NCBI GenBank assembly: GCA_964582845.1
Contig: CAZOTW010000003.1
Location: 4,790-40,820 of the forward strand
Direction: 5' to 3'
Length of the DNA: 36,031 bases
Source: an uncultured Gammaproteobacteria bacterium
Lineage (GTDB): Bacteria; Patescibacteriota; Microgenomatia; UBA10105; UBA927
Shown here: positions 3,596-27,694 of the stretch, one piece after another
How positions within the stretch are numbered: the stretch's first letter is position 1
How the letters are laid out: the number at the start of each line of letters is the position of its first letter
The notes under the pieces: model-generated
Told to the model about the DNA's origin: nothing
Seen by the model: the letters and a program-made list of their open reading frames with translations, nothing else
The model's database searches: none
Position numbers and translations under genes: made by a program

Positions 3596-3606
3596 ACCCT
3601 CTCGTT

Positions 3607-4068
3607 TTATCCTTTTAGCGCCACGACGACGCTATCGGCCCAGGAGTTAATTTTGTCCATATTGCCCGTCTGGTCGGAGTAGAATTTATCAATCCGAAGC
3701 GACGGGACAATTAACTTTCCCTTCATGGTCTTGACCAATTCTTCCAGGTGATCGACAGCGCCGCAAAAGTGCTTGTAGGATGAGTCGCCCAACCCGAAAA
3801 TGACAAACGGTTTTCCTTCGACCGTAACCGTTTTAAGTTTTTCCATGAGCGGTAGGAAATCTTCGTGCGGCATACCCTCGTGACCTTCAAAATCCCAACT
3901 CGGTGAACCCATAAGTATCGCGTGTGGAGCCGAAAAATTTTCAATGGTGGTATCGCGTGCTTCTTTCATGGTGACCGAGTGACCCGCTTTGGTCAGCTTG
4001 TCGGCAACCGTTTGAGCAGTCGTCATCGTGGTTCCTGAATTTGTCGCATAAACGATAAGAATATTCAT
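3607..4068 (-). CDS. flavodoxin (short-chain type)
   Basis: MNILIVYATNSGTT phosphate-binding loop, GSPSWDFEG and FGLGDSSY motifs. AAGGAGGGG Shine-Dalgarno sequence upstream on the minus strand. Convergent with rpsG, with only 11 nt between the stops. Confidence 0.85.
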   Translation of the reverse strand: MNILIVYATNSGTTMTTAQTVADKLTKAGHSVTMKEARDTTIENFSAPHAILMGSPSWDFEGHEGMPHEDFLPLMEKLKTVTVEGKPFVIFGLGDSSYKHFCGAVDHLEELVKTMKGKLIVPSLRIDKFYSDQTGNMDKINSWADSVVVALKG

Positions 4069-4171
4069 GGTTTCCCCTCCTTACTCGTATATAGAAATTG
4101 TACACTGGGTTGTTTTACAATAGCAAGCGTAAGTCCCGAGTGTAATCGAGGGACGCGAGAGTTATTTTATT

Positions 4172-4777
4172 ATGAATCAAAGAGTGAAGTCTCATTTCCA
4201 AAAGGCTGACCCGATACTCTTTGGCGTACTCCAGAAAATAGAGAAAAAGGACGAGCTAGTGCCGCGAAAAAGTGATGATTATTTTTCAGATATCTGTCAG
4301 GCAATTATTAATCAACAGCTGTCGGATAAAGCGGGCGCCACAATTTTTAAACGGTTCGTACACTTGTTTCCACATGGGAAAGTGACGCCGCAGAGCCTCA
4401 TGCGATTATCCGATACGCAGATTCGCGCGGTTGGTCCATCGGGAAGCAAGGTACAGTTCCTTAAATCTCTGGCGCGAAGCGTCATAGCAAAAGAAATTGT
4501 TTTTACTGCTCTTGAAACGCTATCCGATGAAGATGTTAGGAAAGAATTAGTGAAGCTTAAAGGAATCGGCCCGTGGACTGCGGAAATGTTTCTTATGTTC
4601 TCGCTCGGGCGGGAAGATGTATTTTCCTATGGCGATTTGGGCTTGAGAAGGGCTATCCAAAAACTTTACAACTTCAAAAAAGAACCAACAAAGCGACAGA
4701 TGGAAAAAGTTACGAATAGGTGGATGCCATATAGGACGTATGCATGTCGCATTCTATGGAGAAGTTTGGAAATATAA
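4172..4777 (+). CDS. HhH-GPD superfamily DNA glycosylase (AlkA / 3-methyladenine glycosylase II-like)
   Basis: LKGIGPWTAEMFLMFSLGREDVFSYGDLGLRRAI, i.e. a helix-hairpin-helix plus Gly/Pro loop and a conserved Asp. Confidence 0.8.
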   Translation: MNQRVKSHFQKADPILFGVLQKIEKKDELVPRKSDDYFSDICQAIINQQLSDKAGATIFKRFVHLFPHGKVTPQSLMRLSDTQIRAVGPSGSKVQFLKSLARSVIAKEIVFTALETLSDEDVRKELVKLKGIGPWTAEMFLMFSLGREDVFSYGDLGLRRAIQKLYNFKKEPTKRQMEKVTNRWMPYRTYACRILWRSLEI

Positions 4778-4800
4778 AAAATGCGGTACAATAGTATTAT

Positions 4801-5160
4801 ATGAAAATTGCTATCTTTCTTCTGTTTCTTGGGCTCGTTACTGTCGTGTTACTTTTTCCTTTCGTCATGAAGGAAAAGGCGTGTTACGAACAATCACAGG
4901 TGGGATTAGATTTTATCGGGTATAGTGTGCCAGCGCGCGGGTGGGACATAACGGAAGTATGTAAACGGCGTGTGGTGGTGCTTGGTACTCTTGAAGAGTG
5001 TATCCACCAGGCAACGAGGTCAGGCGGCCTTTTGACGAAATACACAAATGGCGTGGTACAAGGAGCCGTTTATATCGTCCGGCCCCTCACCAAAGGATTT
5101 GATACCCTGAAAACCGAGCACAATCAAGAGTGCGCGGATTACGAACAGTATCAGATGTAA
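4801..5160 (+). CDS. hypothetical small secreted or membrane-anchored Cys-containing protein
   Basis: N-terminal hydrophobic segment MKIAIFLLFLGLVTVVLLFPF, 4 Cys. A TACAAT box ends 8 nt before the ATG. Confidence 0.45.
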   Translation: MKIAIFLLFLGLVTVVLLFPFVMKEKACYEQSQVGLDFIGYSVPARGWDITEVCKRRVVVLGTLEECIHQATRSGGLLTKYTNGVVQGAVYIVRPLTKGFDTLKTEHNQECADYEQYQM

Positions 5161-5212
5161 ATATCGCGAGTCTACTATGACCGACTGGTTCTATACGATA
5201 CAATAGATCTGT

Positions 5213-6181
5213 ATGCAGCTTAACTGGGTTGATGTAGTGATTATTGCGATTGTTGCATATTCTGCGTTTCGGGGATGGAAGACGGGGCTTGTCCTTCTGT
5301 TTTCGAACCTCATTTCTTTTATTATTGCGTTGTGGCTGGCGATCAAATTCAACGGAGTGGTGAGTGGGTTTCTTGCAGATAAATTTGGCGTTCCCGCTCT
5401 TTGGGCAACGGTTGCCGGGTATATCGTGGTTGGGTTTACTGCCGAGGTAGTGCTTACTGAATTATTTACGTTGATGATCAGAAAAATACCGGATAAATTG
5501 GCGCTATCCTGGGTAAATAATTGGCTCGGCGCATTGGTGTCGGCCGTCAACGGATTTCTCATCGTCGCATTTTTTATTTTAATTATCTCCGTACTGCCTC
5601 TTCGAGGGACCGTGAAAAATGACATTCGCAAGTCTCAGGTTGGGAAATACATTGTGACGCTCGTCGCTACCCATGGCGGACCGTTGCAATCGACCGTGAA
5701 TGAAGTAGGGAAGAAGGCGACAAAATTTTTTACCATAGAACCGGGGTCGAAAGGCAGTCTTACTATAGATGTTGCTCCGAAGGCATCAGACCTCCATGTG
5801 GATTCGAATTCGGAAGCCCAGATGGTGCAACTCGTGAATGCCGAAAGAAAACTAGCTGGCGTGCCTTCGCTCACTGTCGATTCCAAGATCACAGAAGTAG
5901 CCCGAGAGCATAGCCGCGACATGTTTTTGCGGCGCTATTTTTCTCATCTCACGCCGGAAGGGAAGGATGCCGGTACCCGGATGGAAAATGGGGGCGTCGT
6001 GTTCACCCAGGCGGGAGAAAATATTGCTTATACACCGGATTTACTTACCGCGCATCAGGGGCTCATGGATAGCGAAGAGCATCGGAAAAATATTTTAGAC
6101 CCCGAGTTTCATCGAATCGGCATAGGTATTATTTCTACAGACAGCTTCGGCATGATGGTGACCCAGGAATTTGCAAATTGA
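5213..6181 (+). CDS. CvpA-family membrane domain fused to a CAP/SCP (YkwD-like) extracytoplasmic domain
   Basis: N-terminal half has 4 TM helices beginning MQLNWVDVVIIAI..FRGWKTG (CvpA-like). C-terminal part has LVNAERKLAGVP..AREHSRDM..FSHL..GENIAY..HRKNILDPEFHRIGIG (CAP domain). Confidence 0.75.
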   Translation: MQLNWVDVVIIAIVAYSAFRGWKTGLVLLFSNLISFIIALWLAIKFNGVVSGFLADKFGVPALWATVAGYIVVGFTAEVVLTELFTLMIRKIPDKLALSWVNNWLGALVSAVNGFLIVAFFILIISVLPLRGTVKNDIRKSQVGKYIVTLVATHGGPLQSTVNEVGKKATKFFTIEPGSKGSLTIDVAPKASDLHVDSNSEAQMVQLVNAERKLAGVPSLTVDSKITEVAREHSRDMFLRRYFSHLTPEGKDAGTRMENGGVVFTQAGENIAYTPDLLTAHQGLMDSEEHRKNILDPEFHRIGIGIISTDSFGMMVTQEFAN

Positions 6182-6194
6182 TTACTTCACTTGA

Positions 6195-6890
6195 TTAGTT
6201 TCCGCTATTGAGGATGACGGTGGACCCTTTGAAATTGGTTATGGTAAATGGCGTTTCGCCGTGAAACAGCTTAGATCCCTGTGCGTTGACGGTTACATAC
6301 GTGGTAAGGTTTGGCGATGTTGTGATGGGTTGAAAATTCATATCGATGAGCTGAAACGTCTGTGATGGTGCCGTGATACCCGATGATGGTGTAATCGCAA
6401 GTCCCACGTTTATCGTGCCCGTGAGATTCGCCTGACTCGTTGAGCTAAAGGTAAGTGCCGGTGCAAGCGCAGGATTTTTGCTGGTGCTGATGGAAACTAA
6501 TTTCATTTTTGTTTTATCGAAATCAATTCGTATTTGTCCTTGGTCGACAGACGATTCTGCGTTTACCCATAATTGAAGAAGCACCATGGGTTTTGTGCGG
6601 GATTCCGATGGTACGATCATGATATTGGCGCGAGAGTTGCCTGCTTTTGTCACAATATTCTGTGGTTTTTGGATTTGTTGGGCGATGACAAAACCGACAA
6701 CGAGCATCATGACAAACGAGAGTTTCCAGACAAATTGCGTGCGTACGCCACTATCTATTAATCGTTTATACCATGGGGTCGGGACGATGACCGTTTCCGG
6801 TATTTGTTCAAGTATGACTGTGGGAGGTTGAGAGCCTGGTTCTGTATGTTGTGAATCCGTTGACGATGGTGGTTGGTTATGATCGTCCAT
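6195..6890 (-). CDS. hypothetical membrane-anchored protein with a beta-rich extracytoplasmic domain
   Basis: Pro/Ser/Thr-rich N-terminus, a single TM helix (FVWKLSFVMMLVVGFVIAQQI), then a Ser/Thr/Asn-rich domain. No family recognised. Confidence 0.55.
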   Translation of the reverse strand: MDDHNQPPSSTDSQHTEPGSQPPTVILEQIPETVIVPTPWYKRLIDSGVRTQFVWKLSFVMMLVVGFVIAQQIQKPQNIVTKAGNSRANIMIVPSESRTKPMVLLQLWVNAESSVDQGQIRIDFDKTKMKLVSISTSKNPALAPALTFSSTSQANLTGTINVGLAITPSSGITAPSQTFQLIDMNFQPITTSPNLTTYVTVNAQGSKLFHGETPFTITNFKGSTVILNSGN

Positions 6891-7036
6891 AGGTGGCTAC
6901 CTCTATAATATTACTTGTAAATTACTATAGCAACATGTGTCTCCTTTGTCTCAAGAGTGGAAACGGACTATTGAAGCGGATGATATAGTAGTCCACTCAT
7001 TGACTTTTATATCGTAAATATGTTGAACTAGAGAAC

Positions 7037-7119
7037 TGTTAGGGGTGTCCCGAGCTTGTCGAGGGACTGAGATTATACCCTTTAAACCTGATCTGGATTA
7101 TACCAGCGGAGGGAAACAA
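7037..7119 (+). promoter_or_regulatory. TPP (THI-box) riboswitch aptamer
   Basis: UGUUAGGGGUGUCCCGAGCUUGUCGAGGGACUGAGAUUAUACCCUUUAAACCUGAUCUGGAUUAUACCAGCGGAGGGAAACAA. Matches block for block the E. coli thiM aptamer as I recall it (GGGGUGC..CUGAGA..ACCC..ACCUGAUCUGGAUAAUGCCAGCGUAGGGAA). The GGAGGG Shine-Dalgarno sequence lies inside the aptamer and the 3' strand of P1 abuts the ATG. Confidence 0.9.
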
Positions 7120-7635
7120 ATGAGCCAAGAACGCTCCCACATTTTAGAGCCTCGGATTACCAGCCCGTTTCGTAATGAATACAATTTGTATGAGCAAGGT
7201 GTTGCTCTTCTTATTTTTAATAGAGCAGGCAAAATACTATTAGTCAAAGAGACACACGACGACCCTAGGTACGGAAGGACAGTTGGTCAATGGAATATCG
7301 TTACGGAAACAAGGCAATTTGGCGAACGCGTAAAGCCGAACATACAACGAGCAATTGATGAAGAACTCGGAATGGATTACTCACTGTTTATGATTATTCC
7401 CCGAAGCTATCGGGAAACGAACGGGATATACAATAGAGAGATGGGGTACCGGTATAAATATCGATGTGTATGTTTTGTATACGAAGGGGATCCCGATAGA
7501 CCCGCACATGAGGTATTTCACTGTAATTCCGGCGAAATTGCCGGGTATCAGTGGGTTGCGCCGGATGCGTTAGATCTTTATAATATCGAACCTGGCGCGC
7601 GAAAGGTCATTGAATATTATAAAAGTTTTGGTTGA
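7120..7635 (+). CDS. Nudix-family hydrolase-like protein (degenerate Nudix box)
   Basis: Start ATG at 7120 sits 6 nt after GGAGGG. GVALLIFNRAGKILLVKE...WNIVTETRQFGE-RVKPNIQ-RAIDEELGM fits E-x7-R(E/A)UxEExGU. The track start at 7045 reads through the riboswitch. Confidence 0.65.
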   Translation: MSQERSHILEPRITSPFRNEYNLYEQGVALLIFNRAGKILLVKETHDDPRYGRTVGQWNIVTETRQFGERVKPNIQRAIDEELGMDYSLFMIIPRSYRETNGIYNREMGYRYKYRCVCFVYEGDPDRPAHEVFHCNSGEIAGYQWVAPDALDLYNIEPGARKVIEYYKSFG

Positions 7636-7699
7636 CTCTTTTGCCTCGTGGAAGAAGTTTCATTAGTACGCCTTCAGATTCAGGACAACGATAGTATCT

Positions 7700-8344
7700 T
7701 TACTCAGAAATAGGAGCGGGTTCCTTGGCGATTATGGTAAAACTTCCCTCAAGGGAGTCTACGTCACCTATACTACTTTCCATAGAATGAATCGTAGCGG
7801 ATGTTGGATTCTCGATAGACATCATACCGGTGGCTATTCTATAGGCGCTGGGATTTACCAATAAATTATTCAGTCTACGTAAATCTTCGTCGCGTACTTC
7901 TGCTCTCATAAACGGATATGTATACGTGTCGCCAATCTGTTCCCGATGACCGTTTATGGGGCCTTGTCCCTCGACCAATCTTAATAAGTCTACCGTTCTC
8001 TCCCCATGTCGAAGCAGTCCCGCTTCTCTTCGGGCGACGTCCCATCCTTCGCCGTCATGAGGGTCTAATATCTTGGTGGCATAGGTGCTAGAGATCGGGA
8101 GGTTGGTCTGTGTTTTGACTCGTGTTACTTCAATACCATTCTGCTTCGCAATATCGAGGATTTGATTACATAACCTCGTTATATCAGCGCGTAATTCATC
8201 TCGCCCCTCTGGTGTTCTTATGTCCCGGGCTGCACCACAGTTTGTCGCTACGATCCAAAACCGGCCGTATTTTGCTTCTAATGTGGCTGGATCAAGACCT
8301 TTGTCTTTTGGTTCAAAAAATTTTGGCGCTTCTAGTTGTGACAT
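7700..8344 (-). CDS. hypothetical protein
   Basis: 214-aa ORF with ordinary composition, convergent with the Nudix gene. No motif recognised. Confidence 0.55.
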   Translation of the reverse strand: MSQLEAPKFFEPKDKGLDPATLEAKYGRFWIVATNCGAARDIRTPEGRDELRADITRLCNQILDIAKQNGIEVTRVKTQTNLPISSTYATKILDPHDGEGWDVARREAGLLRHGERTVDLLRLVEGQGPINGHREQIGDTYTYPFMRAEVRDEDLRRLNNLLVNPSAYRIATGMMSIENPTSATIHSMESSIGDVDSLEGSFTIIAKEPAPISE

Positions 8345-8429
8345 ATCGATATTGGAAAATCTGCGATTATATTGTTCTAATGGTCCATAGTATACTCATT
8401 CGCCTTTTCATTTGCAATAGATTTCATTT

Positions 8430-8458
8430 TTGCCCCAACTCCCTAAACGTATTATACT
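8430..8458 (+). promoter_or_regulatory. candidate sigma70-type promoter (TTGCCC-N17-TATACT)
   Basis: Hexamers at 8430-8435 and 8453-8458 with 17-nt spacing, 20 nt upstream of the flavodoxin ATG. Confidence 0.4.
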
Positions 8459-8477
8459 TTGGATGAATCCGTTTCCT

Positions 8478-8960
8478 ATGAACATATTAGTCGTTTATGA
8501 TTCCATGTATGGCAATACCAAAGAAATTGCCAAAGCGATTGCGGGTGGGTTTGGAAAATCGGACACCGTGAAGTTGGTGCAGGCCCGTGAAGCGAAACTT
8601 TCGGATCTTCAGTCCCTCGATCTTCTCGTTGTCGGCTCGCCGACACAGGGAGGGAGAGCCACGTCCTCGGTATATGATTTCTTTACCGATATTCCCCAAA
8701 ACGGGCTAAGCGGTGTGGGTGTGGCCGCATTCGATACGCGTTTTGAACCGGAACTCCAAGGGAAAGCACTGCGTCTGGTCATGGGAATTCTGGGATATGC
8801 TGCGACAAAAATCGGAAACTCACTGACCCAAAAAGGCGGCCGCCTCGTCGTCCCCCCGGAGGGCTTTATCGTTCGCGGTAAAGAGGGACCACTTAAAGAA
8901 GGGGAACTCAAACGCGCGGCCACGTGGGCTGCCGCTCTTCGCACGAACAAAAGGGTATGA
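8478..8960 (+). CDS. flavodoxin-fold protein
   Basis: MNILVVYDSMYGNTKEIAKAIAGG.. and VVGSPTQGG are typical flavodoxin motifs. I chose the ATG at 8478 rather than the track start at 8430. Confidence 0.8.
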   Translation: MNILVVYDSMYGNTKEIAKAIAGGFGKSDTVKLVQAREAKLSDLQSLDLLVVGSPTQGGRATSSVYDFFTDIPQNGLSGVGVAAFDTRFEPELQGKALRLVMGILGYAATKIGNSLTQKGGRLVVPPEGFIVRGKEGPLKEGELKRAATWAAALRTNKRV

Positions 8961-9121
8961 TGCTGTAGAGAATGGCTTATAGTTGATTAATATGAGATAA
9001 TACACTGCTCTTTCCAAGAGTATTCATCACCTTCGTAATCGCACGATCGCACATTGATATACGATGAATTTTTGACCTATCGCTACGGAAAAGCGGTTTT
9101 TTCGTTTGGAGGGTTCCATCC

Positions 9122-9352
9122 ATGAAACAGGAAAAACCTGTCCGCAAGGGGCGACGAGGGAGTATTAAAGTGAAATGGGAGGAGTTCTTTATTGGCGCGG
9201 TGCTAATTGGGATTTCAATAATCCTAATTGGCGTAATTTGCAATGCTCTGAATCCCCCGGTCATCGCCACCATGATGGTGATGGTTATCCCTTTTAGCTT
9301 CGCACTGTGGCTTCTTTACCTCGCATATCTATGCGATTTTCATCCGTCGTAA
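9122..9352 (+). CDS. hypothetical small membrane protein (2 TM)
   Basis: GGAGGG lies 8 nt upstream of the ATG. Basic N-terminus followed by two hydrophobic helices. Confidence 0.45.
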   Translation: MKQEKPVRKGRRGSIKVKWEEFFIGAVLIGISIILIGVICNALNPPVIATMMVMVIPFSFALWLLYLAYLCDFHPS

Positions 9353-9573
9353 GGGCCCCACAAAAGCGCGAAATGTCGGCATAACCTTCCTTTTATTGAG
9401 AGAGGCCAGGAGTGTACACGCGCATCACGCGCACTTTGCATTTGCAATCGTACACACACCGGCCCCTCAGTTTTCTTTGATGTGTAGCGCTTACCACACT
9501 CACACGAAGTGCTGAATGGAACTTTCCCGCGCCGCCCTCTGGCCAACCTCATTCCATGTGAGATAATCAGTCC

Positions 9574-10434
9574 ATGAACCTTATTATTCCTCTTCTCCTC
9601 TCCTTTGTTCCCATGATTATGTGGGGGACGATGGATGTTTTGGGCGGACTCCTTGCGCGAAAAGCACCTGCAACAATTGGTTTTTTTACCACACAATTGA
9701 TGGGTCTCCTTATAACACTTACTTTTTTGCCCTTCATTCCGAAACCAACAGTCATAACCATAATTCCTTTATTTCTCCTCGGCATACTTCCCGTATTTTC
9801 ATGGCTTCTGTATTTTAAAGCCGCTCAAGTCACGGATATTTCCATCGTCGGCCCCATATCCCGGGTTGATTTTGTTCTGACAAGTATATTGGGTATGGTA
9901 TTTCTGCAGGAAGCAGCGACCCCGGCGAAATTTATCAGCATCGGTTTGGTATTTGTGGGAAGTGGTCTATTGTCTCTGGACTGGTCAAAGCTTACTCATA
10001 AAAAAATTCCGAACTTAACGGTCGGTGCTGTCCTTGCCTTTTTCTGCGCGGTTGCTGTCGGCTTGCAGCTTTTCTTGATGGCGCCGGAATCCCGTATAAA
10101 CGGATGGTATTACACGTCATTATTTTTACGTATCGCCGCCACCGCGTATGCAGGACTATGCGTCGTTCTGTTTAAGCAAACGAAAACGTTATTTCAATCG
10201 TATTTACCTTGGAAATTGATAGCTGGCGTGGCATTGGTGGACGTTATCGGATTGAGTGTTTATAACTTCACTGTCATGCGGTATCCGGTATCGTATGTGT
10301 CCGTTATCGTGTCCTGCGCGTCCTTCGTTACCATCCTTATCGCCCGCTTATGGTTAAAGGAAAAACTCCGTTCGCTCCAATACGTCGGAATTTTTCTGAT
10401 GATATTAGGCATTATCAGTTTACAAATCTCCTGA
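9574..10434 (+). CDS. EamA/DMT-family transporter
   Basis: About 10 predicted TM helices in two similar halves, with an N-terminal ..MIMWGTMDV.. typical of EamA. TGaGATAAT ends 6 nt before the ATG. Confidence 0.8.
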   Translation: MNLIIPLLLSFVPMIMWGTMDVLGGLLARKAPATIGFFTTQLMGLLITLTFLPFIPKPTVITIIPLFLLGILPVFSWLLYFKAAQVTDISIVGPISRVDFVLTSILGMVFLQEAATPAKFISIGLVFVGSGLLSLDWSKLTHKKIPNLTVGAVLAFFCAVAVGLQLFLMAPESRINGWYYTSLFLRIAATAYAGLCVVLFKQTKTLFQSYLPWKLIAGVALVDVIGLSVYNFTVMRYPVSYVSVIVSCASFVTILIARLWLKEKLRSLQYVGIFLMILGIISLQIS

Positions 10435-10447
10435 ATCGATTCAGGAG
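10428..10447. repeat. perfect 20-bp palindrome spanning the EamA stop codon
   Basis: CTCCTGAATC|GATTCAGGAG. It directly abuts repeat R1. Confidence 0.9.
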
Positions 10448-10515
10448 AGTAAATAGTTCAATTATTCGAATAATTGAACTGTCTGTTTTCCGTGCACCTC
10501 GGAGGTGAGTAAAAC
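10448..10515 (+). repeat. island repeat R1 (26-bp perfect palindrome + GC hairpin)
   Basis: AGTAAAT-AGTTCAATTATTC|GAATAATTGAACT (10455-10480), then a T-rich spacer, then CCGTGCACCTCgGAGGTGaGTAAAAC. Confidence 0.9.
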
Positions 10516-10552
10516 GTGGACCGCCTCGCTTCGCGAACAAAAAGACACATAA
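10514..10552 (+). pseudogene. relic 3' end of a flavodoxin-like gene (copy 1)
   Basis: ACGTGGaCcGCCtCgCTTCGC--GAACAAAAaG aligns with flavodoxin 8922-8955. In frame it reads ..KTWTASLREQKDT*. No upstream ORF. Confidence 0.5.
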
Positions 10553-10690
10553 GAACAGGTGCGAACCTAATCCACCCGGAGGGTGGCAGACATTGGTCTT
10601 GCGCTGGCTCTGGACTACGGGTTCTTATCCCTTTACCTCGTAAGCAGAAAAAAATAGATCGGTCGTGCAAAACGAAAAGTTGATTTATGA

Positions 10691-10699
10691 TGATATAAT
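10691..10699 (+). promoter_or_regulatory. extended -10 promoter element TGATATAAT (cassette 1)
   Basis: Perfect TGnTATAAT. The same 9-mer recurs at 12605-12613 in front of cassette 2. Confidence 0.5.
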
Positions 10700-10713
10700 A
10701 TTCGCGATTAGTT

Positions 10714-11229
10714 GTGCTATCTGAATTTTATTCTTCTATGACTTCGCTACCTGATTATAAGGATAGTTTTGCAGAGGCGTACTTATTTGCTATTTCTGCT
10801 GCAGCAGGGCTACCGATTGAGAGATCGACTCGTAGAACAGATAACCTTGGAATTGATCTAACTTTGAGTAAAAAGAACGATTCGGTATCCCCAGGGTCTC
10901 AAATTAACATACAATTAAAAGGAGTTGCAGAAAATAGCGCCTCAATGTTTAAAGAGGATGAAAGATCGATAAGTTATAATTTCCATAATCCTTGTAATCC
11001 AATAGGGGCACATTATCTAGTTGTAGTGCGATTGCCGAACGATGGAACACCTGAAGATTGGTTAACCTTGACTGAAAAAGAGTTGATAATAAGAAAGTGT
11101 GCATTCTATACAAAAATTGTGCCAAAGATGAAATCAGGTTTTGTTAAAATACCAAAAACTCAGCTATTGACTCATAATAATCTCCCGACACTGTTTCCTA
11201 GTGCTATAGACTTGGTAAATAATTTGTAA
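10714..11229 (+). CDS. DUF4365-like PD-(D/E)xK (restriction-endonuclease fold) protein
   Basis: E21 (SFAEAYLF), D43/D48 (RTDNLGIDLTL) and Q67-L-K69 (INIQLKG) occur in the order and spacing of the PD-(D/E)xK core. GTG start at 10714, alternative ATG at 10738. AT-rich. Confidence 0.6.
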   Translation: MLSEFYSSMTSLPDYKDSFAEAYLFAISAAAGLPIERSTRRTDNLGIDLTLSKKNDSVSPGSQINIQLKGVAENSASMFKEDERSISYNFHNPCNPIGAHYLVVVRLPNDGTPEDWLTLTEKELIIRKCAFYTKIVPKMKSGFVKIPKTQLLTHNNLPTLFPSAIDLVNNL

Positions 11230-11232
11230 AAT

Positions 11233-12390
11233 ATGAATATAATTTCAATAAGTAGTTTTCAAGATGTATTCCAGAGAATAGGTTTGATTAAAAGCAAATC
11301 TAAATCAGGTAACTATGAAATTTGGAAATCAAGGGAACGCGACGATCTTTTTACAGTACTACCTTTAGCAAAAAGTAGTCATGACTATGAGTACTATCAG
11401 GAAAAAAACGTTGAGTTTATTAATTATTTACTGGGGTTAGTGTACAACGAAGAAAACAAAGAGGAGATATTGAGTCAATTGAATGGATACAATTATAAAC
11501 TAATAAATAGAATACAAACAAAAGAACCATATTCACAAGAAACAGTCCCTTATAGGTTAGCAGATGTACTAATTAACAAAAATGTTAACGCGTTTCTATA
11601 TTTCTTTAATCAGAAAACAAAAGGAAAGATTCCTCTGGGTATCAAAAATATAAGATTGAACCACACGCAGCATGGTAGCTTTGTTATACCAGTGTCGATA
11701 GAATTAGTTGGTCAAGAAACTTTTCCGACAATCCCTTCGCAAATAAATAAAACCCTAAGAGACTATTTGGATGTTGTAGATCTTATTTCTGGTTTAGATA
11801 TGTCCAACGAAGAAAAATTTGCGTCTTCAGTTTTGGAGAACGACTTGGATTCGACATTAGTAAGGAATTTTATTGATAGTACTTCGAGTGTAGCTTTTTA
11901 TAAAAAAGAATATAGCGATTTTATTCAAAACGTTTCAATATCAGGAAGAAGTAACCCAATACTTGATTATCAACTTGAGAGAAAATATAAGAATTTTCCA
12001 GAAGTGAGTTTGGCCCAATTACAACCAGCTTCGGTGGAGTTTTTTGAATATCTTGAACGAAAAGAAACAGAGCGGGATGAGCAAGCAATATATGCAGTTA
12101 ATACAACAATCGAAGTTATTGTTGACGCTTTAGATAGGGGTGGCAAAGTAAAATTTAGTGTAGTGGCGGTAGGCGCACAAAGGATTGATAAGCCTTTTAA
12201 GGCGTCTATAGATGAACAGCCGCAAGTAAGGCTAAATGAGTTTGCAAGTGCTTTTATTACTGGTGAAGTGCTTGAGCTTAATGGAGATATTCGAAAGCCA
12301 AAACATAAGTTGGGGAAAATATTGGTTCATGAACTTAAACGCAAGAATCCTAAATTGACGCTTCTTGATGATATTACAGAAAAAAAGTAG
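11233..12390 (+). CDS. hypothetical protein, orphan partner of the nuclease-like gene
   Basis: 385-aa ORF starting 3 nt after the upstream stop. No P-loop, methyltransferase, helicase or HTH motif recognised. Confidence 0.6.
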   Translation: MNIISISSFQDVFQRIGLIKSKSKSGNYEIWKSRERDDLFTVLPLAKSSHDYEYYQEKNVEFINYLLGLVYNEENKEEILSQLNGYNYKLINRIQTKEPYSQETVPYRLADVLINKNVNAFLYFFNQKTKGKIPLGIKNIRLNHTQHGSFVIPVSIELVGQETFPTIPSQINKTLRDYLDVVDLISGLDMSNEEKFASSVLENDLDSTLVRNFIDSTSSVAFYKKEYSDFIQNVSISGRSNPILDYQLERKYKNFPEVSLAQLQPASVEFFEYLERKETERDEQAIYAVNTTIEVIVDALDRGGKVKFSVVAVGAQRIDKPFKASIDEQPQVRLNEFASAFITGEVLELNGDIRKPKHKLGKILVHELKRKNPKLTLLDDITEKK

Positions 12391-12481
12391 TGTTTGTTAG
12401 ATTGCTAAACAATCTCGTTATTTTCTCCACATTTCTCTTCAACGCCTCTTTCGTTTTGAGAAACCCGAGGGAGTGAAAAGC

Positions 12482-12553
12482 AGTAAATAGTTCGATTATT
12501 CGAATAATCGAACTATTTGGAATTTTTTCCGTGCACCTCGGAGGTGCGTAAAC
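12482..12553 (+). repeat. island repeat R2 (34-bp perfect palindrome + GC hairpin)
   Basis: AAATAGTTCGATTATTC|GAATAATCGAACTATTT (12485-12518), then GGAATTTTTTCC, then GTGCACCTCgGAGGTGCGTAAAC. Flanked by identical 13-mers AAACCCGAGGGAG at 12461-12473 and 12554-12566. Confidence 0.9.
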
Positions 12554-12604
12554 AAACCCGAGGGAGCGCGGGATTTCTTTTTGGAGCGTGCTACAGCCTT
12601 CCTG

Positions 12605-12613
12605 TGATATAAT
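12605..12613 (+). promoter_or_regulatory. extended -10 promoter element TGATATAAT (cassette 2, leaderless geometry)
   Basis: Perfect TGnTATAAT ending 7 nt before the ATG at 12621. Confidence 0.5.
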
Positions 12614-12620
12614 TAAGTTA

Positions 12621-13124
12621 ATGCCAGAAATAAACCAAGTTAACGACGAAAATACTCAACCATCTTCCTTACCTGAGGCTTTTATTCCCGAGGTTGATTT
12701 AGTAGGAGTATCAGTTGACCCCAAGAAAGCCGCAGAATTTGTAGAAACACCTGGTATCAAACAAGCGCTCGCACAAGCTGGAACATTTCTTGGAGGTGCA
12801 GGAGTGACAATGGCTGGATTATCTGACTTTATCAACGTTACTATGAACCAACCCACAGGTCCTGAACGAACTACTGCAATGATAACAACTTTTTTAATAA
12901 TGAATATAGGTATAGTTATGCTTTGTTCATCGAAAAATGTAACTGAAATGTTTCAACATGGTTTACTGCGAATCCAATCTATTGCTTCAAGAGATAAAGA
13001 TATTGTTACAGGAGAAGGCGAACTTACTGCAAAGGGGCGACTGGCTCTTTCCCCTGATAAAGAGCCGGAATTATCTTTAGAGCAGTTATTAGCACGATCA
13101 AACGGGAATCAACAACAAAAATGA
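12621..13124 (+). CDS. hypothetical 2-TM membrane protein
   Basis: I chose the ATG at 12621 because it has -10 geometry; the track start at 12588 is a GTG. Hydrophobic segments AGTFLGGAGVTMAGLSDFI and AMITTFLIMNIGIVMLCSS, with a polar Gln-rich C-terminus. Confidence 0.55.
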   Translation: MPEINQVNDENTQPSSLPEAFIPEVDLVGVSVDPKKAAEFVETPGIKQALAQAGTFLGGAGVTMAGLSDFINVTMNQPTGPERTTAMITTFLIMNIGIVMLCSSKNVTEMFQHGLLRIQSIASRDKDIVTGEGELTAKGRLALSPDKEPELSLEQLLARSNGNQQQK

Positions 13125-13483
13125 CCGTAGAAGAACAATATATTATTTTAGAGAATATTCTTTATGAGTTAGGGTATGATGATGAAAAAATACTTGCGTT
13201 TCGACGGACTTTTTTTGAACGTCTCATTTTAAGATTAGGAAAAACCACGTTAATGATATTTCCTGTTACTCAGCAAGCTGCTTTTTTTGATTTATTAAAA
13301 AAAAGCGAAACAATTCCAGAAGATATTAATGCTTTCTTTAAAAGAAATAATATTTCTCAAACAACAGTTTCTTTATTAGACAAAGAATTTACCATGCTAC
13401 TTGAAGAAACAAAACAAAATATCTTAAAAGTTGTTACAGAATCTCAAAAGAAAATCATTGAAGAGAAATTTAATTCAGCTTAA
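13121..13483 (+). CDS. hypothetical small helical protein
   Basis: 120 aa. Start overlaps the upstream stop (ATGA), implying translational coupling. No family recognised. Confidence 0.55.
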   Translation: MTVEEQYIILENILYELGYDDEKILAFRRTFFERLILRLGKTTLMIFPVTQQAAFFDLLKKSETIPEDINAFFKRNNISQTTVSLLDKEFTMLLEETKQNILKVVTESQKKIIEEKFNSA

Positions 13484-13567
13484 GATTTTTTTATTACATC
13501 ACTACTGACTAAGGCAAACTCAAAGTTTGAGTCCTATCGGGGTTAAAGTAGTTATAAGAATATATAC

Positions 13568-13631
13568 AGTTTAATTATTCGAATAATTGAACTATTAGGA
13601 ATTTTCCGTGCACCTCGGAGGTGCGTAAAAC
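13568..13631 (+). repeat. island repeat R3 (palindrome with one mismatch + GC hairpin)
   Basis: AGTTtAATTATTC|GAATAATTGAACT (13568-13593), then ATTAGGAATTTTCC, then GTGCACCTCgGAGGTGCGTAAAAC. Confidence 0.9.
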
Positions 13632-13671
13632 TTGGGCTACCGCTCTTCGTACGAAGAAAAGGGAAGAATGA
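13632..13671 (+). pseudogene. relic 3' end of a flavodoxin-like gene (copy 2)
   Basis: TGGGCTaCCGCTCTTCGtACGAAgAAAAGGG matches flavodoxin 8925-8955 at 28 of 31 positions. In frame it reads ..KTWATALRTKKREE*, versus TWAAALRTNKRV* in the intact gene. Confidence 0.6.
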
Positions 13672-13675
13672 GGAT

Positions 13676-13710
13676 AGTATATACGTAGTATATATCAAGT
13701 ATATACTACG
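13676..13710. repeat. three phased AGTATATA 8-mers (11-bp period) overlapping an 11-bp inverted repeat
   Basis: 8-mers at 13676, 13687 and 13698. Inverted repeat CGTAGTATATA-tcaag-TATATACTACG at 13684-13710 covers a TATACT box (13702-13707) 14 nt before the ATG at 13722. Confidence 0.85.
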
Positions 13711-13721
13711 CAGTTTTCGAC

Positions 13722-14024
13722 ATGATGCAGAAAAAGGTTACATGGTACACTATAAATGTGAAATTCTTGCGCCCTCGATTGGTTAACATCTTGCCTACTC
13801 TCATTCTTTTGTTTCTCCTCATCCTCTGGGAACACGCGGCGTTGCCGACCGGCGGGTATGTATTGGTGCGCTATGTGCCGGTTTTTGTATTCGTCGACTA
13901 CGTAAAGCTTCAGTATTACGGTGGCGCGTTACTTTTTATCGGGTTTTTCCTGATTGTATATGTGGTGGTTTCGTTGGGCGTTGCCATACTTTCGAGCATT
14001 CTTCGGCACATAAAAACTCCATAA
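13722..14024 (+). CDS. hypothetical membrane protein
   Basis: 100 aa with 2-3 strongly hydrophobic helices (ILPTLILLFLLILW, GGALLFIGFFLIVYVVVSLGVAIL). Confidence 0.5.
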   Translation: MMQKKVTWYTINVKFLRPRLVNILPTLILLFLLILWEHAALPTGGYVLVRYVPVFVFVDYVKLQYYGGALLFIGFFLIVYVVVSLGVAILSSILRHIKTP

Positions 14025-14086
14025 TCGATGTAGAACTTTTTTCGCACGGGGATAACATGGTGCACCTTTGCTATACTTGAGGCAGG

Positions 14087-15070
14087 ATGAGTAACGATCT
14101 TGCTATACTTCTTGCCCGAACATATCTTCAAATCCCCTTTGATCAGTTTCTCAAAGAAGTGAAAACTCAATATCCGCGACTTGGGGAGATAACGCAGTTT
14201 CAACCGATCACGGAAGGATACGAAGATGCCAATATATTGCTCGTCACAGAGACAGGAACGTACGTCATTAAAATATTCTCGAAAGACAGGAGTGTAGAAA
14301 ATGTTAGAAGTTACATCCACATCCTTGAGGAAGCGCAAAAAATTGGCGTACCGGTAACCCGGCTTGTTCCCGGGACAAAAGGTAGCATAAGTTTCGCGGC
14401 GGAAAATACCAAGACCCCGTATTGCATTGCGGAGTTTTTTGACGGGAATGATTTTCAGGAAAAATCTCCGACGATGGATGATATGGTTCGCGTCGCTTCC
14501 TATCTTGCGAAACTGAATACGCTTCGTTTTCCGATGACGGAATATTATGACTCATGGGGAAATAAAAATCTTGCAGTTGAGTACGAAAAAAATAAGGAGA
14601 GTCTCACACGCGAGCAGGCAGAATTGATTGCGCCGGTTGTTGAGAGCTTCAAGAAGCTGGATTTTTCCAAATTCAGCACATCAATTATTCATGGTGACAT
14701 GCAGCGAAAACACGTGCTGAAAAACGCTAAAGGCGAATACTGCATTTTGGATTTCGGGTGTGCCGCGAACGGTCCGAAGGTCATCGAATTATCGACGCAT
14801 CTTGCGTGGTTTTGTTTAGGGGAAGATACGTGGAGTGCGCGGAAAGATATTATGAATAAGGTAGTTGAGGAGTATACATCGGTGCATCACCTGACGAAAT
14901 ACGAACTTGATGCGCTACCCATACTCATGCGTGCTTGCTATGCAGCATATTATCTGAAAACCTGTGTATTGATTGGTGACGGAAACACGAGTCAGGAAAC
15001 GGCCCAATGGAATAAAACGTCTCTTCAAATGCTTCGTTTAGCCGCGCTTGCGGGAAGAGGGGAATTCTAG
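14087..15070 (+). CDS. APH/choline-kinase/homoserine-kinase-II family phosphotransferase
   Basis: IIHGDMQRKHVL catalytic loop followed by ILDFGCA (DFG-type metal-binding motif). The usual Asn at D+5 is His here. Confidence 0.8.
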   Translation: MSNDLAILLARTYLQIPFDQFLKEVKTQYPRLGEITQFQPITEGYEDANILLVTETGTYVIKIFSKDRSVENVRSYIHILEEAQKIGVPVTRLVPGTKGSISFAAENTKTPYCIAEFFDGNDFQEKSPTMDDMVRVASYLAKLNTLRFPMTEYYDSWGNKNLAVEYEKNKESLTREQAELIAPVVESFKKLDFSKFSTSIIHGDMQRKHVLKNAKGEYCILDFGCAANGPKVIELSTHLAWFCLGEDTWSARKDIMNKVVEEYTSVHHLTKYELDALPILMRACYAAYYLKTCVLIGDGNTSQETAQWNKTSLQMLRLAALAGRGEF

Positions 15071-15076
15071 TACAAT
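15048..15076 (+). promoter_or_regulatory. candidate promoter (TTGCGG-N17-TACAAT)
   Basis: Hexamers at 15048-15053 and 15071-15076, spanning the kinase stop codon. Confidence 0.35.
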
Positions 15077-15099
15077 ATGAGCGTTGAAACACGGCTAAT

Positions 15100-15125
15100 G
15101 CGCCCGGAGTGGCGCTTTTTATTTT
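15100..15125 (+). terminator. intrinsic-terminator-like hairpin abutting the fusA ATG
   Basis: GCGCC-cggagt-GGCGC followed by TTTTTATTTT. The fusA ATG begins at the very next base. Confidence 0.55.
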
Positions 15126-26454: not shown

Positions 26455-26784
26455 ATGATAGACAAAAGACTTTTGCGACTAAAAAGAAAATTGCGTATCC
26501 GATCAAAAATTACCGGAACTCAAAAGCGGCCGCGTATGGCGGTGTATCGTTCTAATAAAGCATTTATGATACAGCTTATCGATGACGGGAAACAGGAGAC
26601 GCTATTGTCTCTGTCGATGAGGGGGAAAACCATAGAAAAAGCAAAAGCGTTGGGTATTGAGGTTGCCAAAAAAGCGGTGAAAAAGGGTATTACCAACGTC
26701 GTTTTTGATCGTGGCGGATATCGATATCACGGTTCAATTAAAGCGGTAGCGGATGGTGCGCGTGAAGGAGGATTAGCACTATGA
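26455..26784 (+). CDS. rplR: 50S ribosomal protein L18
   Basis: ..PRMAVYRSNK...QLIDD.. ..VVFDRGGYRYHG..KA.ADGAREGGL. Confidence 0.95.
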   Translation: MIDKRLLRLKRKLRIRSKITGTQKRPRMAVYRSNKAFMIQLIDDGKQETLLSLSMRGKTIEKAKALGIEVAKKAVKKGITNVVFDRGGYRYHGSIKAVADGAREGGLAL

Positions 26785-27263
26785 GGTATCAACAAAAGAC
26801 AGAACGGGTTCCCAGTGAGTTTGAAGAAAAAATTGTTCAGGTAAATCGTGTGTCAAAAAAAACCAAGGGAGGCAATAAAATCGGGTTTTCCGTCCTTGCT
26901 GTGGTTGGCGACCGGAAGGGTCGCGTCGGAGTGGGGCTGGGAGGCGCTCCGGATGTATCCTCATCGGTACGAAAAGCGGTTACGTATGCAAAGAAACATT
27001 TGTTTACGGTTCCCATGAAGGGGAAAACTATTCCGCATGAAGTTCGTGTGAAATTGGGAGCAGCACGCGTCCTGTTAAAACCCGCTCCTCCCGGTACGGG
27101 AGTTATTGCCGGTGGGGCAGTTCGCGCTGTCATGGAAGCGGCGGGAGTACGGGATGTCGTGTCGAAGATTTTGGGAAGTAAAAATCAGGCGTCCAACGTC
27201 TATGCGACCATGGAAGCATTGAAACATTTAAGACTTCGTCCGAAATCAGGAGTAAATGTATGA
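26781..27263 (+). CDS. rpsE: 30S ribosomal protein S5
   Basis: ..VNRVSKKTKGGNKIGFSVLAVVGD..G.VG.G.G.A..V.. Confidence 0.96.
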   Translation: MRYQQKTERVPSEFEEKIVQVNRVSKKTKGGNKIGFSVLAVVGDRKGRVGVGLGGAPDVSSSVRKAVTYAKKHLFTVPMKGKTIPHEVRVKLGAARVLLKPAPPGTGVIAGGAVRAVMEAAGVRDVVSKILGSKNQASNVYATMEALKHLRLRPKSGVNV

Positions 27264-27694
27264 ATCTCTCGACGTTATCACCAATTGTTGCGCGGTCAAA
27301 AAAACGGATAGGCCGAGGGCATGGATCCGGAAAAGTAAAAACCGCAGGACGGGGGACGAAAGGGCAGAATGCGCGTGACAGCATGCCATTGGGTTTTGAA
27401 GGAGGACAGCTTTCTATTCTCAAGCGGTTGCCGCTCCTTCGCGGTAAAGGGAGAAATCACAGTCAAAAGAGAAAAGCGTATCCCATCAGCGTTTCAGTTT
27501 TATCCGCGCTTCCGTCAGGGACCGTAGTGACATTGGCAACACTTCGAAAATATCATATGATTGATGAGGATGTGACGCGGGTAAAAGTATTGGGACACGG
27601 AGCACTGTCAACAAAGCTCACTGTAGCAGTGCCATGTTCAAAAAGCGCCCTTCGGGTTATTGAAAAAGCCGGTGGTATACTACAAAAAACTTAG
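27260..27694 (+). CDS. rplO: 50S ribosomal protein L15
   Basis: ..KKRIGRGHGSGKVKTAGRGTKGQ.AR. Start overlaps the rpsE stop (ATGA), leaving no room for rpmD. Confidence 0.95.
   Translation: MNLSTLSPIVARSKKRIGRGHGSGKVKTAGRGTKGQNARDSMPLGFEGGQLSILKRLPLLRGKGRNHSQKRKAYPISVSVLSALPSGTVVTLATLRKYHMIDEDVTRVKVLGHGALSTKLTVAVPCSKSALRVIEKAGGILQKT

Follow-up and report, generated by a model that had tools for sequence, protein, structure and literature searches.

The subject of this report is a pair of adjacent genes, here called open reading frame (ORF) A and ORF B, found in a 36,031-nt stretch of contig CAZOTW010000003.1 from an uncultured bacterium. The whole of this stretch is referred to below as the window. 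The two genes lie as follows:

Positions 10714 to 11229, plus strand: ORF A, 171 aa from a GTG at 10714 (TAA stop at 11227–11229) or 163 aa from an ATG at 10738.
Positions 11233 to 12390, plus strand: ORF B, ATG start, 385 aa.

An earlier reading of the window made from the letters alone (the sequence-only reading) had placed two co-directional ORFs 3 nt apart here, and its coordinates and sizes matched when the region was re-read; both ORFs are intact and the 3 nt between them are AAT. The start of ORF A is ambiguous. The ATG at 10738 was chosen by one gene caller and gives an N-terminus equal in length to that of most homologues in the family alignment, and the 171-aa form that starts at the GTG is annotated in a sibling NCBI assembly. 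ORFs A and B also lie in one reading frame with TAA AAT between them (11227–11235), such that readthrough of the stop codon would give an A-B fusion. Because this arrangement is not kept in homologous loci, the shared frame is probably incidental.

The GC content is 36.6 % for ORF A and 33.5 % for ORF B. At third codon positions (GC3), the values are 28.7 % and 27.2 %, respectively, the next two ORFs (C and D, described below) are at 24.4 % and 17.4 %, and every flanking gene falls between 39 and 56 %. The sequence-only reading had remarked that the DNA here is AT-rich compared to its flanks, and the contrast in GC3 (27–29 % against 39–56 %) is indeed strong. The A-B pair is clearly foreign in composition.

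ORF A matches Pfam PF14280 (DUF4365) over residues 19–160 with an E value of 8.9e-9 and a score of 36 bits, above the gathering cutoff of 24.3, and in PADLOC it matches 19 PDC-M02A models (best E value 1.8e-20) and, at E<1, nothing from other systems. A word-indexed homologue search with A alone returned only A, and a profile was needed to find its relatives. When 16 A proteins from loci that also encode relatives of B were aligned (using the numbering of the 171-aa form), nine residues were invariant, namely K16, D43, D48, Q67, K69, S75, Y88, W116 and F161, and the active-site residues are spaced D-x-x-G-x-D...QxK throughout the family. E21, which the sequence-only reading had counted among the core residues, is not conserved. 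The catalytic D/Q/K of A (D48, Q67 and K69, which are D40, Q59 and K61 in the 163-aa form) matches D41/Q60/K62 of the NbaSPARDA DREN and Q62/K64 of TmuRE, mutation of which abolishes or impairs nuclease activity (PMC12205087 and PMC10810196, respectively). It also matches D42/D46/Q66/K68 of EAT16, a toxin of an extracellular contractile injection system (eCIS), where mutation abolishes or impairs cytotoxicity (PMC11297309).

An AlphaFold2 model of A (predicted local distance difference test score, pLDDT, 80.8) was compared with the Protein Data Bank (PDB) using Foldseek, and the best matches were the SPARDA DREN-APAZ chains 9qcc, 9vx6 and 9jt2 (E values of 3e-5 to 5e-4, TMq 0.51–0.55), followed by EcoRV, I-Ssp6803I and Hjc. 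Sequence searches of the PDB with A alone and with the 16-sequence profile gave nothing meaningful, and only the structure comparison recovered SPARDA. Judged by its conserved residues and modelled fold, ORF A is a predicted standalone nuclease of the DREN/DUF4365 type with a complete D(x2)GxD...QxK active site. Hence, the assignment of A to the DUF4365 branch of the PD-(D/E)xK nucleases, first made by eye, is borne out by the Pfam score, by the invariant D43, D48, Q67 and K69 and by the match of the model to this fold.

No Pfam, NCBIfam or PHROG family matches ORF B, and the sequence-only reading had considered it an orphan. That description can no longer be kept because, though only 11 relatives were present in the word-indexed database, a profile run against 1.84 billion cluster representatives (50 % identity clusters) found 34, 26 of them with E<1e-30, and family members match the PDC-M02B models considered below. 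The strongest motifs in the family are YNYKLINR, NHTQxGSFVIPISI, NPILD, KF(S/T)V, FKA and GDIxK. The AlphaFold2 model of B (pLDDT 82.9, predicted template modelling score 0.80) has an N-terminal alpha-beta-beta-beta-alpha module, a helical middle and a C-terminal region (286–370) in which three beta strands (286–300, 306–313 and 316–326) are followed by a helix (331–343) and two further strands (346–355 and 361–370). The invariant residues K307, F308 and K323 are on strands of this C-terminal domain.

When the model of B was compared with the PDB, Foldseek returned only OB-fold proteins, all of them weak matches (E values of at least 0.016), including SSB, the N-terminal anticodon-binding domain of LysRS, cold-shock domains and the S1-type subunits of the exosome, and one member of the B family gave a marginal match (0.048) to the tRNA_anti-codon family. 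Because the PDB matches are all weak, the assignment is probable and not proven; the C-terminus of B is probably an OB-fold domain and, on the strength of the model, a probable nucleic-acid binder. In the BFVD collection, the model matched uncharacterised phage proteins over its full length, the best being Q6NE06 of Leptospira phage LE1 (E value 2.7e-12), and also a Siphoviridae protein labelled "DUF6575" (E value 2.6e-6). Searches of phage and plasmid collections with B by tblastn gave no match. Two other identities were considered and set aside. DUF6575 is the name of that one structural match, and no sequence match to this Pfam family was found in 28 members of the B family. For a HicA or dsRBD-like N-terminus, comparison with one HicA sequence using hhalign gave a probability of 0.3 %, in a test of low power, and there was no Pfam HicA match in the 28 members.

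The structural resemblances of the two proteins bear on one alternative explanation, namely that mobile elements use the pair as an accessory in recombination or repair, with A an Hjc-like structure-specific nuclease and B an SSB-like OB-fold protein, the two processing intermediates of replication or recombination. The model of A does show a likeness to Hjc, a Holliday-junction resolvase of archaea, and to I-Ssp6803I, a homing endonuclease, B has a likeness at its C-terminus to OB folds of the SSB type, and the pair occurs in phage genomes. However, the DREN matches of the A model surpass those to resolvases by about three orders of magnitude in E value, the neighbours of the pair are variable and are not replication modules, and its distribution is sporadic, island-like and associated with low GC content. 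We consider this explanation very improbable.

A comparison with PADLOC gives the pair a name. B alone matches seven PDC-M02B models weakly (best E value 1.8e-5), and when 28 full-length members of its family were compared to all 5027 PADLOC models, 13 PDC-M02B models and nothing else were matched (best 1e-10). The canonical pair on plasmid p28 of Entomospira culicis matches the PADLOC PDC-M02 models with E values of 1.4e-52 (A) and 5.9e-80 (B). When the alignment of the B family was compared with the canonical p28 B using hhalign, a probability of 95.1 % and an E value of 3.2e-8 were obtained over 317 columns, spanning the full length of the protein, with the GHTxxGSF motif aligned. In the window, the gene matching PDC-M02A comes first and the gene matching PDC-M02B is adjacent to it on the same strand.

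PDC-M02 is cassette CAS_00021 (FAM_01850>>FAM_00842, count 894), listed with the comment "Assign as candidate PDC-M02" (Payne et al. 2024, bioRxiv 10.1101/2024.01.29.577857). The PDC systems are 145 untested candidates that were found via "guilt-by-embedding" within BREX, DISARM and type I restriction-modification (R-M) loci (Payne et al. 2024). The pair in the window resembles PDC-M02 in that both proteins, their order and their sizes agree (a DUF4365 protein of about 165 aa, then one of about 380 aa). It differs in that B belongs to a small divergent branch of 34 representatives and shares only 17 % identity with the canonical Entomospira B in the profile alignment, and in that the host here is an uncultivated groundwater-type metagenome-assembled genome. 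We regard the pair as a divergent member of PDC-M02. The sequence-only reading had put the pair forward as an undescribed system and had itself named a match to an already named system as the outcome that would count against this. As the pair does match one (A at 1.8e-20, the B family with PDC-M02B models only), the claim of novelty fails. The named system is itself still hypothetical because it is a bioinformatic candidate only.

The association of the two genes is constant. Among 24 homologous loci, an A homologue (tblastn E values from 7e-50 to 2e-15) lies directly upstream of B in all 23 that include upstream sequence, and in six of six context look-ups a DUF4365 gene was found immediately 5' of the B relative. 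In these relatives the two genes either overlap slightly (mostly by 4 nt, at the extreme by about 32 nt) or are 1–7 nt apart. Homologues of A and B are, then, always adjacent and translationally coupled, and B is the obligate genomic partner of A.

The surroundings of the homologous pairs vary. In one locus (L001), ResIII and N6/N4 methyltransferase genes are directly ahead of the pair, and reverse transcriptase, GIY-YIG and UvrD genes are also nearby. In two others, the neighbours are PycTM, SNase and serine recombinase genes (L004) and phage-like genes (L003). Seven metagenomic loci include HTH regulators, a tyrosine integrase, TrwB, and PIN, NYN, HD and Fic domains, and their neighbours match the PADLOC models for MkoA/MkoC, SoFic, PDC-S37 and PDC-S04. 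HicAB and recombinases are also found beside homologous pairs, and the canonical Entomospira p28 pair adjoins three DUF262 genes. The NUDIX and APH genes seen in one further locus (L026) suggested a neighbourhood shared with the window, but they are not homologous to the window's genes and the resemblance is a coincidence.

Several of these contexts would suit a two-subunit type IV-like restriction enzyme, in which A would be an Mrr-type catalytic subunit and B would read modified or foreign DNA, with direct cutting and without host suicide. The pair in L001 directly follows ResIII and a methyltransferase, and the DUF262 genes beside the Entomospira pair are, from general knowledge, GmrSD-like. 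It is also generally known that the D...QxK variant found in DUF4365 is the configuration of Mrr-type type IV enzymes, and that R-M, BREX and DISARM loci, in which PDC-M02 is embedded, are a typical type IV location. Furthermore, no methyltransferase domain was found near the pair among the ORFs scanned in the window. However, the DUF4365 nucleases that have been characterised (SPARDA and EAT16) are non-specific, collateral or toxic, B includes no recognisable SRA, YTH or winged helix domain, and the one module that can be recognised in it, the probable OB fold, is more typical of single-stranded nucleic-acid binding. Overall, a type IV-like enzyme appears unlikely, though less so than the other alternatives to PDC-M02 with a sensor-assembled nuclease.

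Other homologues are associated with mobile elements. Homologues of A were found on 21 plasmids, and plasmids from Tolypothrix (L029, 5004–6031) and Nostoc (L030, 4983–6016) carry a DUF4365 gene with a gene for a "mini-B" of 175–180 aa, which matches only the first approximately 90 and the last approximately 80 positions of the PDC-M02B profiles. Judged from these profile matches, mini-B marks the minimal conserved modules of B, the N-terminal module and the putative OB domain. The cyanobacterial plasmid pair immediately follows ParA-type partition genes and precedes an integrase. The viral contig IMGVR_UViG_2765235893_000001 (L031, 7322–9023), which is high in GC and prophage-like, also includes an A-like/B-like pair; a DUF4365-like ORF of 187 aa with a D...QLK motif overlaps the start of a B-like ORF of 389 aa with a GHTQHGSYIIP motif. 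This pair is close to a gene for a large serine recombinase of 477 aa that lies at the end of the contig, where prophage accessory (moron) genes are typically found. In nine of 11 other loci, the GC content of the pair is below that of its flanks.

These associations would also fit a module of the toxin-antitoxin or addiction kind by which mobile elements are stabilised, A being a nuclease toxin and B its protein antitoxin, with any effect on phage secondary. The two genes form a tightly coupled operon, they are carried by plasmids (directly beside ParA genes and integrases in the cyanobacteria) as well as by prophage and phage genomes, and the DUF4365 domain is cytotoxic in EAT16. Set against this, toxin-first order and an antitoxin of 385 aa are, from general knowledge, atypical for type II pairs, the conserved motifs of B itself and its probable nucleic-acid-binding domain suggest an active role, and the isolated DREN domain is inactive and not constitutively toxic. 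We rank this possibility slightly below the type IV-like enzyme and think it improbable.

Taken together, the context of the homologues is the signature of a mobile conflict module, and it does not discriminate between defence and addiction. The sequence-only reading had proposed a defence or conflict module, and this stands insofar as homologues lie among R-M, Mokosh, PycTM, DUF262, toxin-antitoxin and recombinase genes and are carried by plasmids and prophages. The pair in the window itself is solitary. As to function, a nuclease-based conflict module is a reasonable and by now better supported description, and the pair does not represent a new kind of system.

The explanation that we prefer is that the pair is a divergent PDC-M02 in which a sensor, B, assembles the A nuclease, and for this explanation as a whole our confidence is middling. 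B would be a sensor or regulator that binds invader nucleic acid (single-stranded DNA or replication intermediates being the most plausible forms) via its putative OB domain and on sensing would gather copies of A into an active oligomer. Oligomerised A would then degrade DNA non-specifically, the invader's and possibly the host chromosome, with abortive infection as the outcome. This effector logic would copy that of SPARDA (induced tetramerisation), without an Argonaute or a guide RNA. By itself, the DREN domain occurs as an inactive monomer and its activity needs tetramerisation (PMC12205087), and DUF4365 domains are cytotoxic when active (PMC11297309).

A number of points weigh against this explanation. 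Physical contact between A and B is presumed, as is the need for A to oligomerise. The OB assignment relies on weak Foldseek matches (E values of at least 0.016) together with topology. For the N-terminal and middle regions of B no related fold was recognised, and HTxxGSF, its best conserved motif, falls in a part of the model predicted with low confidence (pLDDT about 60). PDC-M02 is a bioinformatic candidate, classed as untested by Payne et al. 2024, and no mention of it was found in the text of papers in the searchable literature. Finally, no other defence gene was recognised by PADLOC among 23 further ORFs of the window, and the pair is not in a defence island.

The motif and repeats that accompany the pair are:

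Positions 10691 to 10699, plus strand: extended -10-like motif TGATATAAT, upstream of ORF A, a candidate promoter.
Positions 10450 to 10533, no strand assigned: repeat R1, 3' of the EamA gene, a 26-nt perfect palindrome plus TTCCGTGCACCTCGGAGGTG that folds as a hairpin.
Positions 12484 to 12572, no strand assigned: repeat R2, 3' of ORF B, a hairpin with a T-run, terminator-like on both strands (RNA fold z = -5.1).
Positions 13563 to 13649, no strand assigned: repeat R3, 3' of the second low-GC cassette (ORFs C and D), at the right edge of the low-GC segment.

The sequence-only reading had identified a perfect extended -10 ahead of ORF A, and the motif is present at 10691–10699. Its occurrence is, however, not beyond chance, as TGNTATAAT was found three times in the window where 1.17 are expected, a count reached in 13 of 100 shuffles, and no -35 hexamer at the proper spacing from TGATATAAT was found upstream of ORF A. 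An identical TGATATAAT is at 12605–12613, 7 nt before the ATG (12621) of the next cassette, and since the same 9-mer recurs there each cassette carries its own promoter-like element. With the motif only 7 nt ahead of that ATG, the C-D transcript may be leaderless.

The repeat unit is approximately 70–100 nt long and consists of an AT-rich perfect palindrome of 26–34 nt, a T-run and the invariant TTCCGTGCACCTCGGAGGTG. The cassette was said in the sequence-only reading to be bounded by R1 and R2; both are real, and there is a third copy, R3. Each copy lies 3' of a transcription unit (EamA, A-B and C-D), and the window includes no further copies beyond these three, where 0 would be expected by chance. 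The repeat hairpins are stable, and R2 has the score of an intrinsic terminator whichever strand is read. On either side of the R2 core (12459–12478 and 12548–12572), AAACCCGAGGGAG is found, and it could be a target-site duplication or part of the repeat. A repeat 20-mer had two single matches in GTDB representative genomes, which is the chance level and in unrelated genomes, and no copies were found in related A-B loci; hence, the repeats are genome-specific and not part of PDC-M02. We read them as intergenic repeats, particular to this genome and containing terminators, that mark off two low-GC cassettes. In the sibling contig MFIZ01000012.1 of GCA_001779035.1, which is 99.96 % identical, a run of Ns (L027, 2653–3123) begins within the EamA gene and ends shortly after R1. 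The gap would agree with a break of the assembly at the repeat, in which case more copies would be present elsewhere in the genome.

The second cassette (12588–13483, between R2 and R3) consists of two overlapping ORFs with the lowest GC3 in the window:

Positions 12588 or 12621 to 13124: ORF C, 167–178 aa, GC3 24 %.
Positions 13121 to 13483: ORF D, 120 aa, GC3 17 %.

Neither ORF has a match in Pfam, PADLOC, NCBIfam or PHROG, and C-D could be another small conflict or toxin-antitoxin-like pair.

The genes rpsG (S7) and fusA (EF-G) are normally adjacent in the str operon. In the window, the order is rpoC-rpsL-rpsG, then approximately 11.5 kb of accessory genes (3596–15125), then fusA-tuf and the S10 and spc ribosomal operons. 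The accessory genes encode two flavodoxins, HhH-GPD, CvpA-CAP, NUDIX and EamA proteins, A-B, the two orphan ORFs and an APH/homoserine-kinase-like protein, and the rpsG-fusA interval seems to be a hotspot at which this lineage gains genes. A TPP riboswitch at 7031–7131, which at 73.6 bits exceeds the gathering score, lies immediately 5' of the NUDIX ORF (7045–7635) and runs into its listed start. A NUDIX gene is not one usually met after a thiamine riboswitch, and its true start is probably further downstream. The S5 gene overlaps the start of L15, with no L30 between them (26781–27694). An S5 gene followed directly by L15 is typical of bacteria of the candidate phyla radiation, and on this ground a host of that type is plausible, not proven here.

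Scanning with Pfam from rpoC through uL2 (53–21656), where some ORFs have no Pfam match at all, revealed no methyltransferase domain, in line with the view of the sequence-only reading that no methylase is nearby and that this is not a classical R-M pair. In the same ORFs, no integrase domain was found. There is no tRNA in the window and so no sign of a tRNA-type integration site, and an Rfam search at a permissive threshold over 10400–13800 found nothing. An integron-type cassette array was considered and rejected, as there is no integrase domain to 21.7 kb, the repeats are perfect palindromes and each cassette has its own promoter-like motif. Judged by eye, the repeats lack the R''/R' core consensus of attC sites.

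That the cassette is a horizontally acquired, translationally coupled two-gene module is a further part of the explanation we prefer. A more far-reaching proposal is that PDC-M02 is a genuine new abortive-infection system, a free DREN nuclease switched on by assembly on an OB-fold sensor, which reached the rpsG-fusA gap here, by capture without a nearby integrase, in one of two cassettes that carry their own promoters and are bounded by terminator repeats. We think this unlikely. PDC-M02 is frequent (894 RefSeq occurrences according to its authors) yet still a candidate only, and the present analysis adds three things. Conserved residues and modelling suggest that PDC-M02A is, structurally and catalytically, the collateral nuclease DREN of SPARDA as a standalone protein. 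PDC-M02B appears to be built of an N-terminal alpha/beta module and a C-terminal domain of OB topology, and mini-B keeps exactly these two. The family also reaches uncultivated groundwater-type bacteria with reduced genomes, the defence repertoires of which are poorly charted.

Compared with known systems, the pair differs from classical R-M in that no cognate methyltransferase domain was found in the scanned ORFs of the window. With Mrr-type type IV enzymes and Divona it shares a D...QxK nuclease of the PD-(D/E)xK class used in defence without a cognate methylase. Divona, an integron cassette system made up of DUF4365, a RecB/Mrr-like nuclease and crr6 (bioRxiv 10.1101/2024.07.02.601686), is also cassette-borne. 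However, each of these is one polypeptide that has DNA-binding or accessory domains of its own, and neither has a partner resembling PDC-M02B. EAT16 is similar in its DUF4365 domain, which is N-terminal there, and in a DxGxD...QxK motif that is required for its cytotoxicity (PMC11297309). In contrast to A, which is presumed to stay inside the cell as a protein of its own beside a dedicated partner, EAT16 has two domains and is a secreted toxin that a contractile injection system carries, and its motif is DxGxD where the A family has D-x-x-G-x-D. The closest likeness is to SPARDA, the short prokaryotic Argonaute with DREN-APAZ, where DUF4365 is the DREN domain, the catalytic D/Q/K have nearly identical positions and the structural match is the best of all. 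The pair differs in having no Argonaute, APAZ or guide RNA (the model of B matched no Ago, APAZ or SPARDA chain in the PDB, and no pAgo models were among the PADLOC matches), and A is a separate protein of 163–171 aa, not a fusion. By analogy, the effector may likewise be inactive until assembled. If so, the pair would represent an Argonaute-independent use of the SPARDA effector principle and, with B as the sensor that assembles the nuclease, a compact, guide-free module that combines a trigger with a collateral nuclease.

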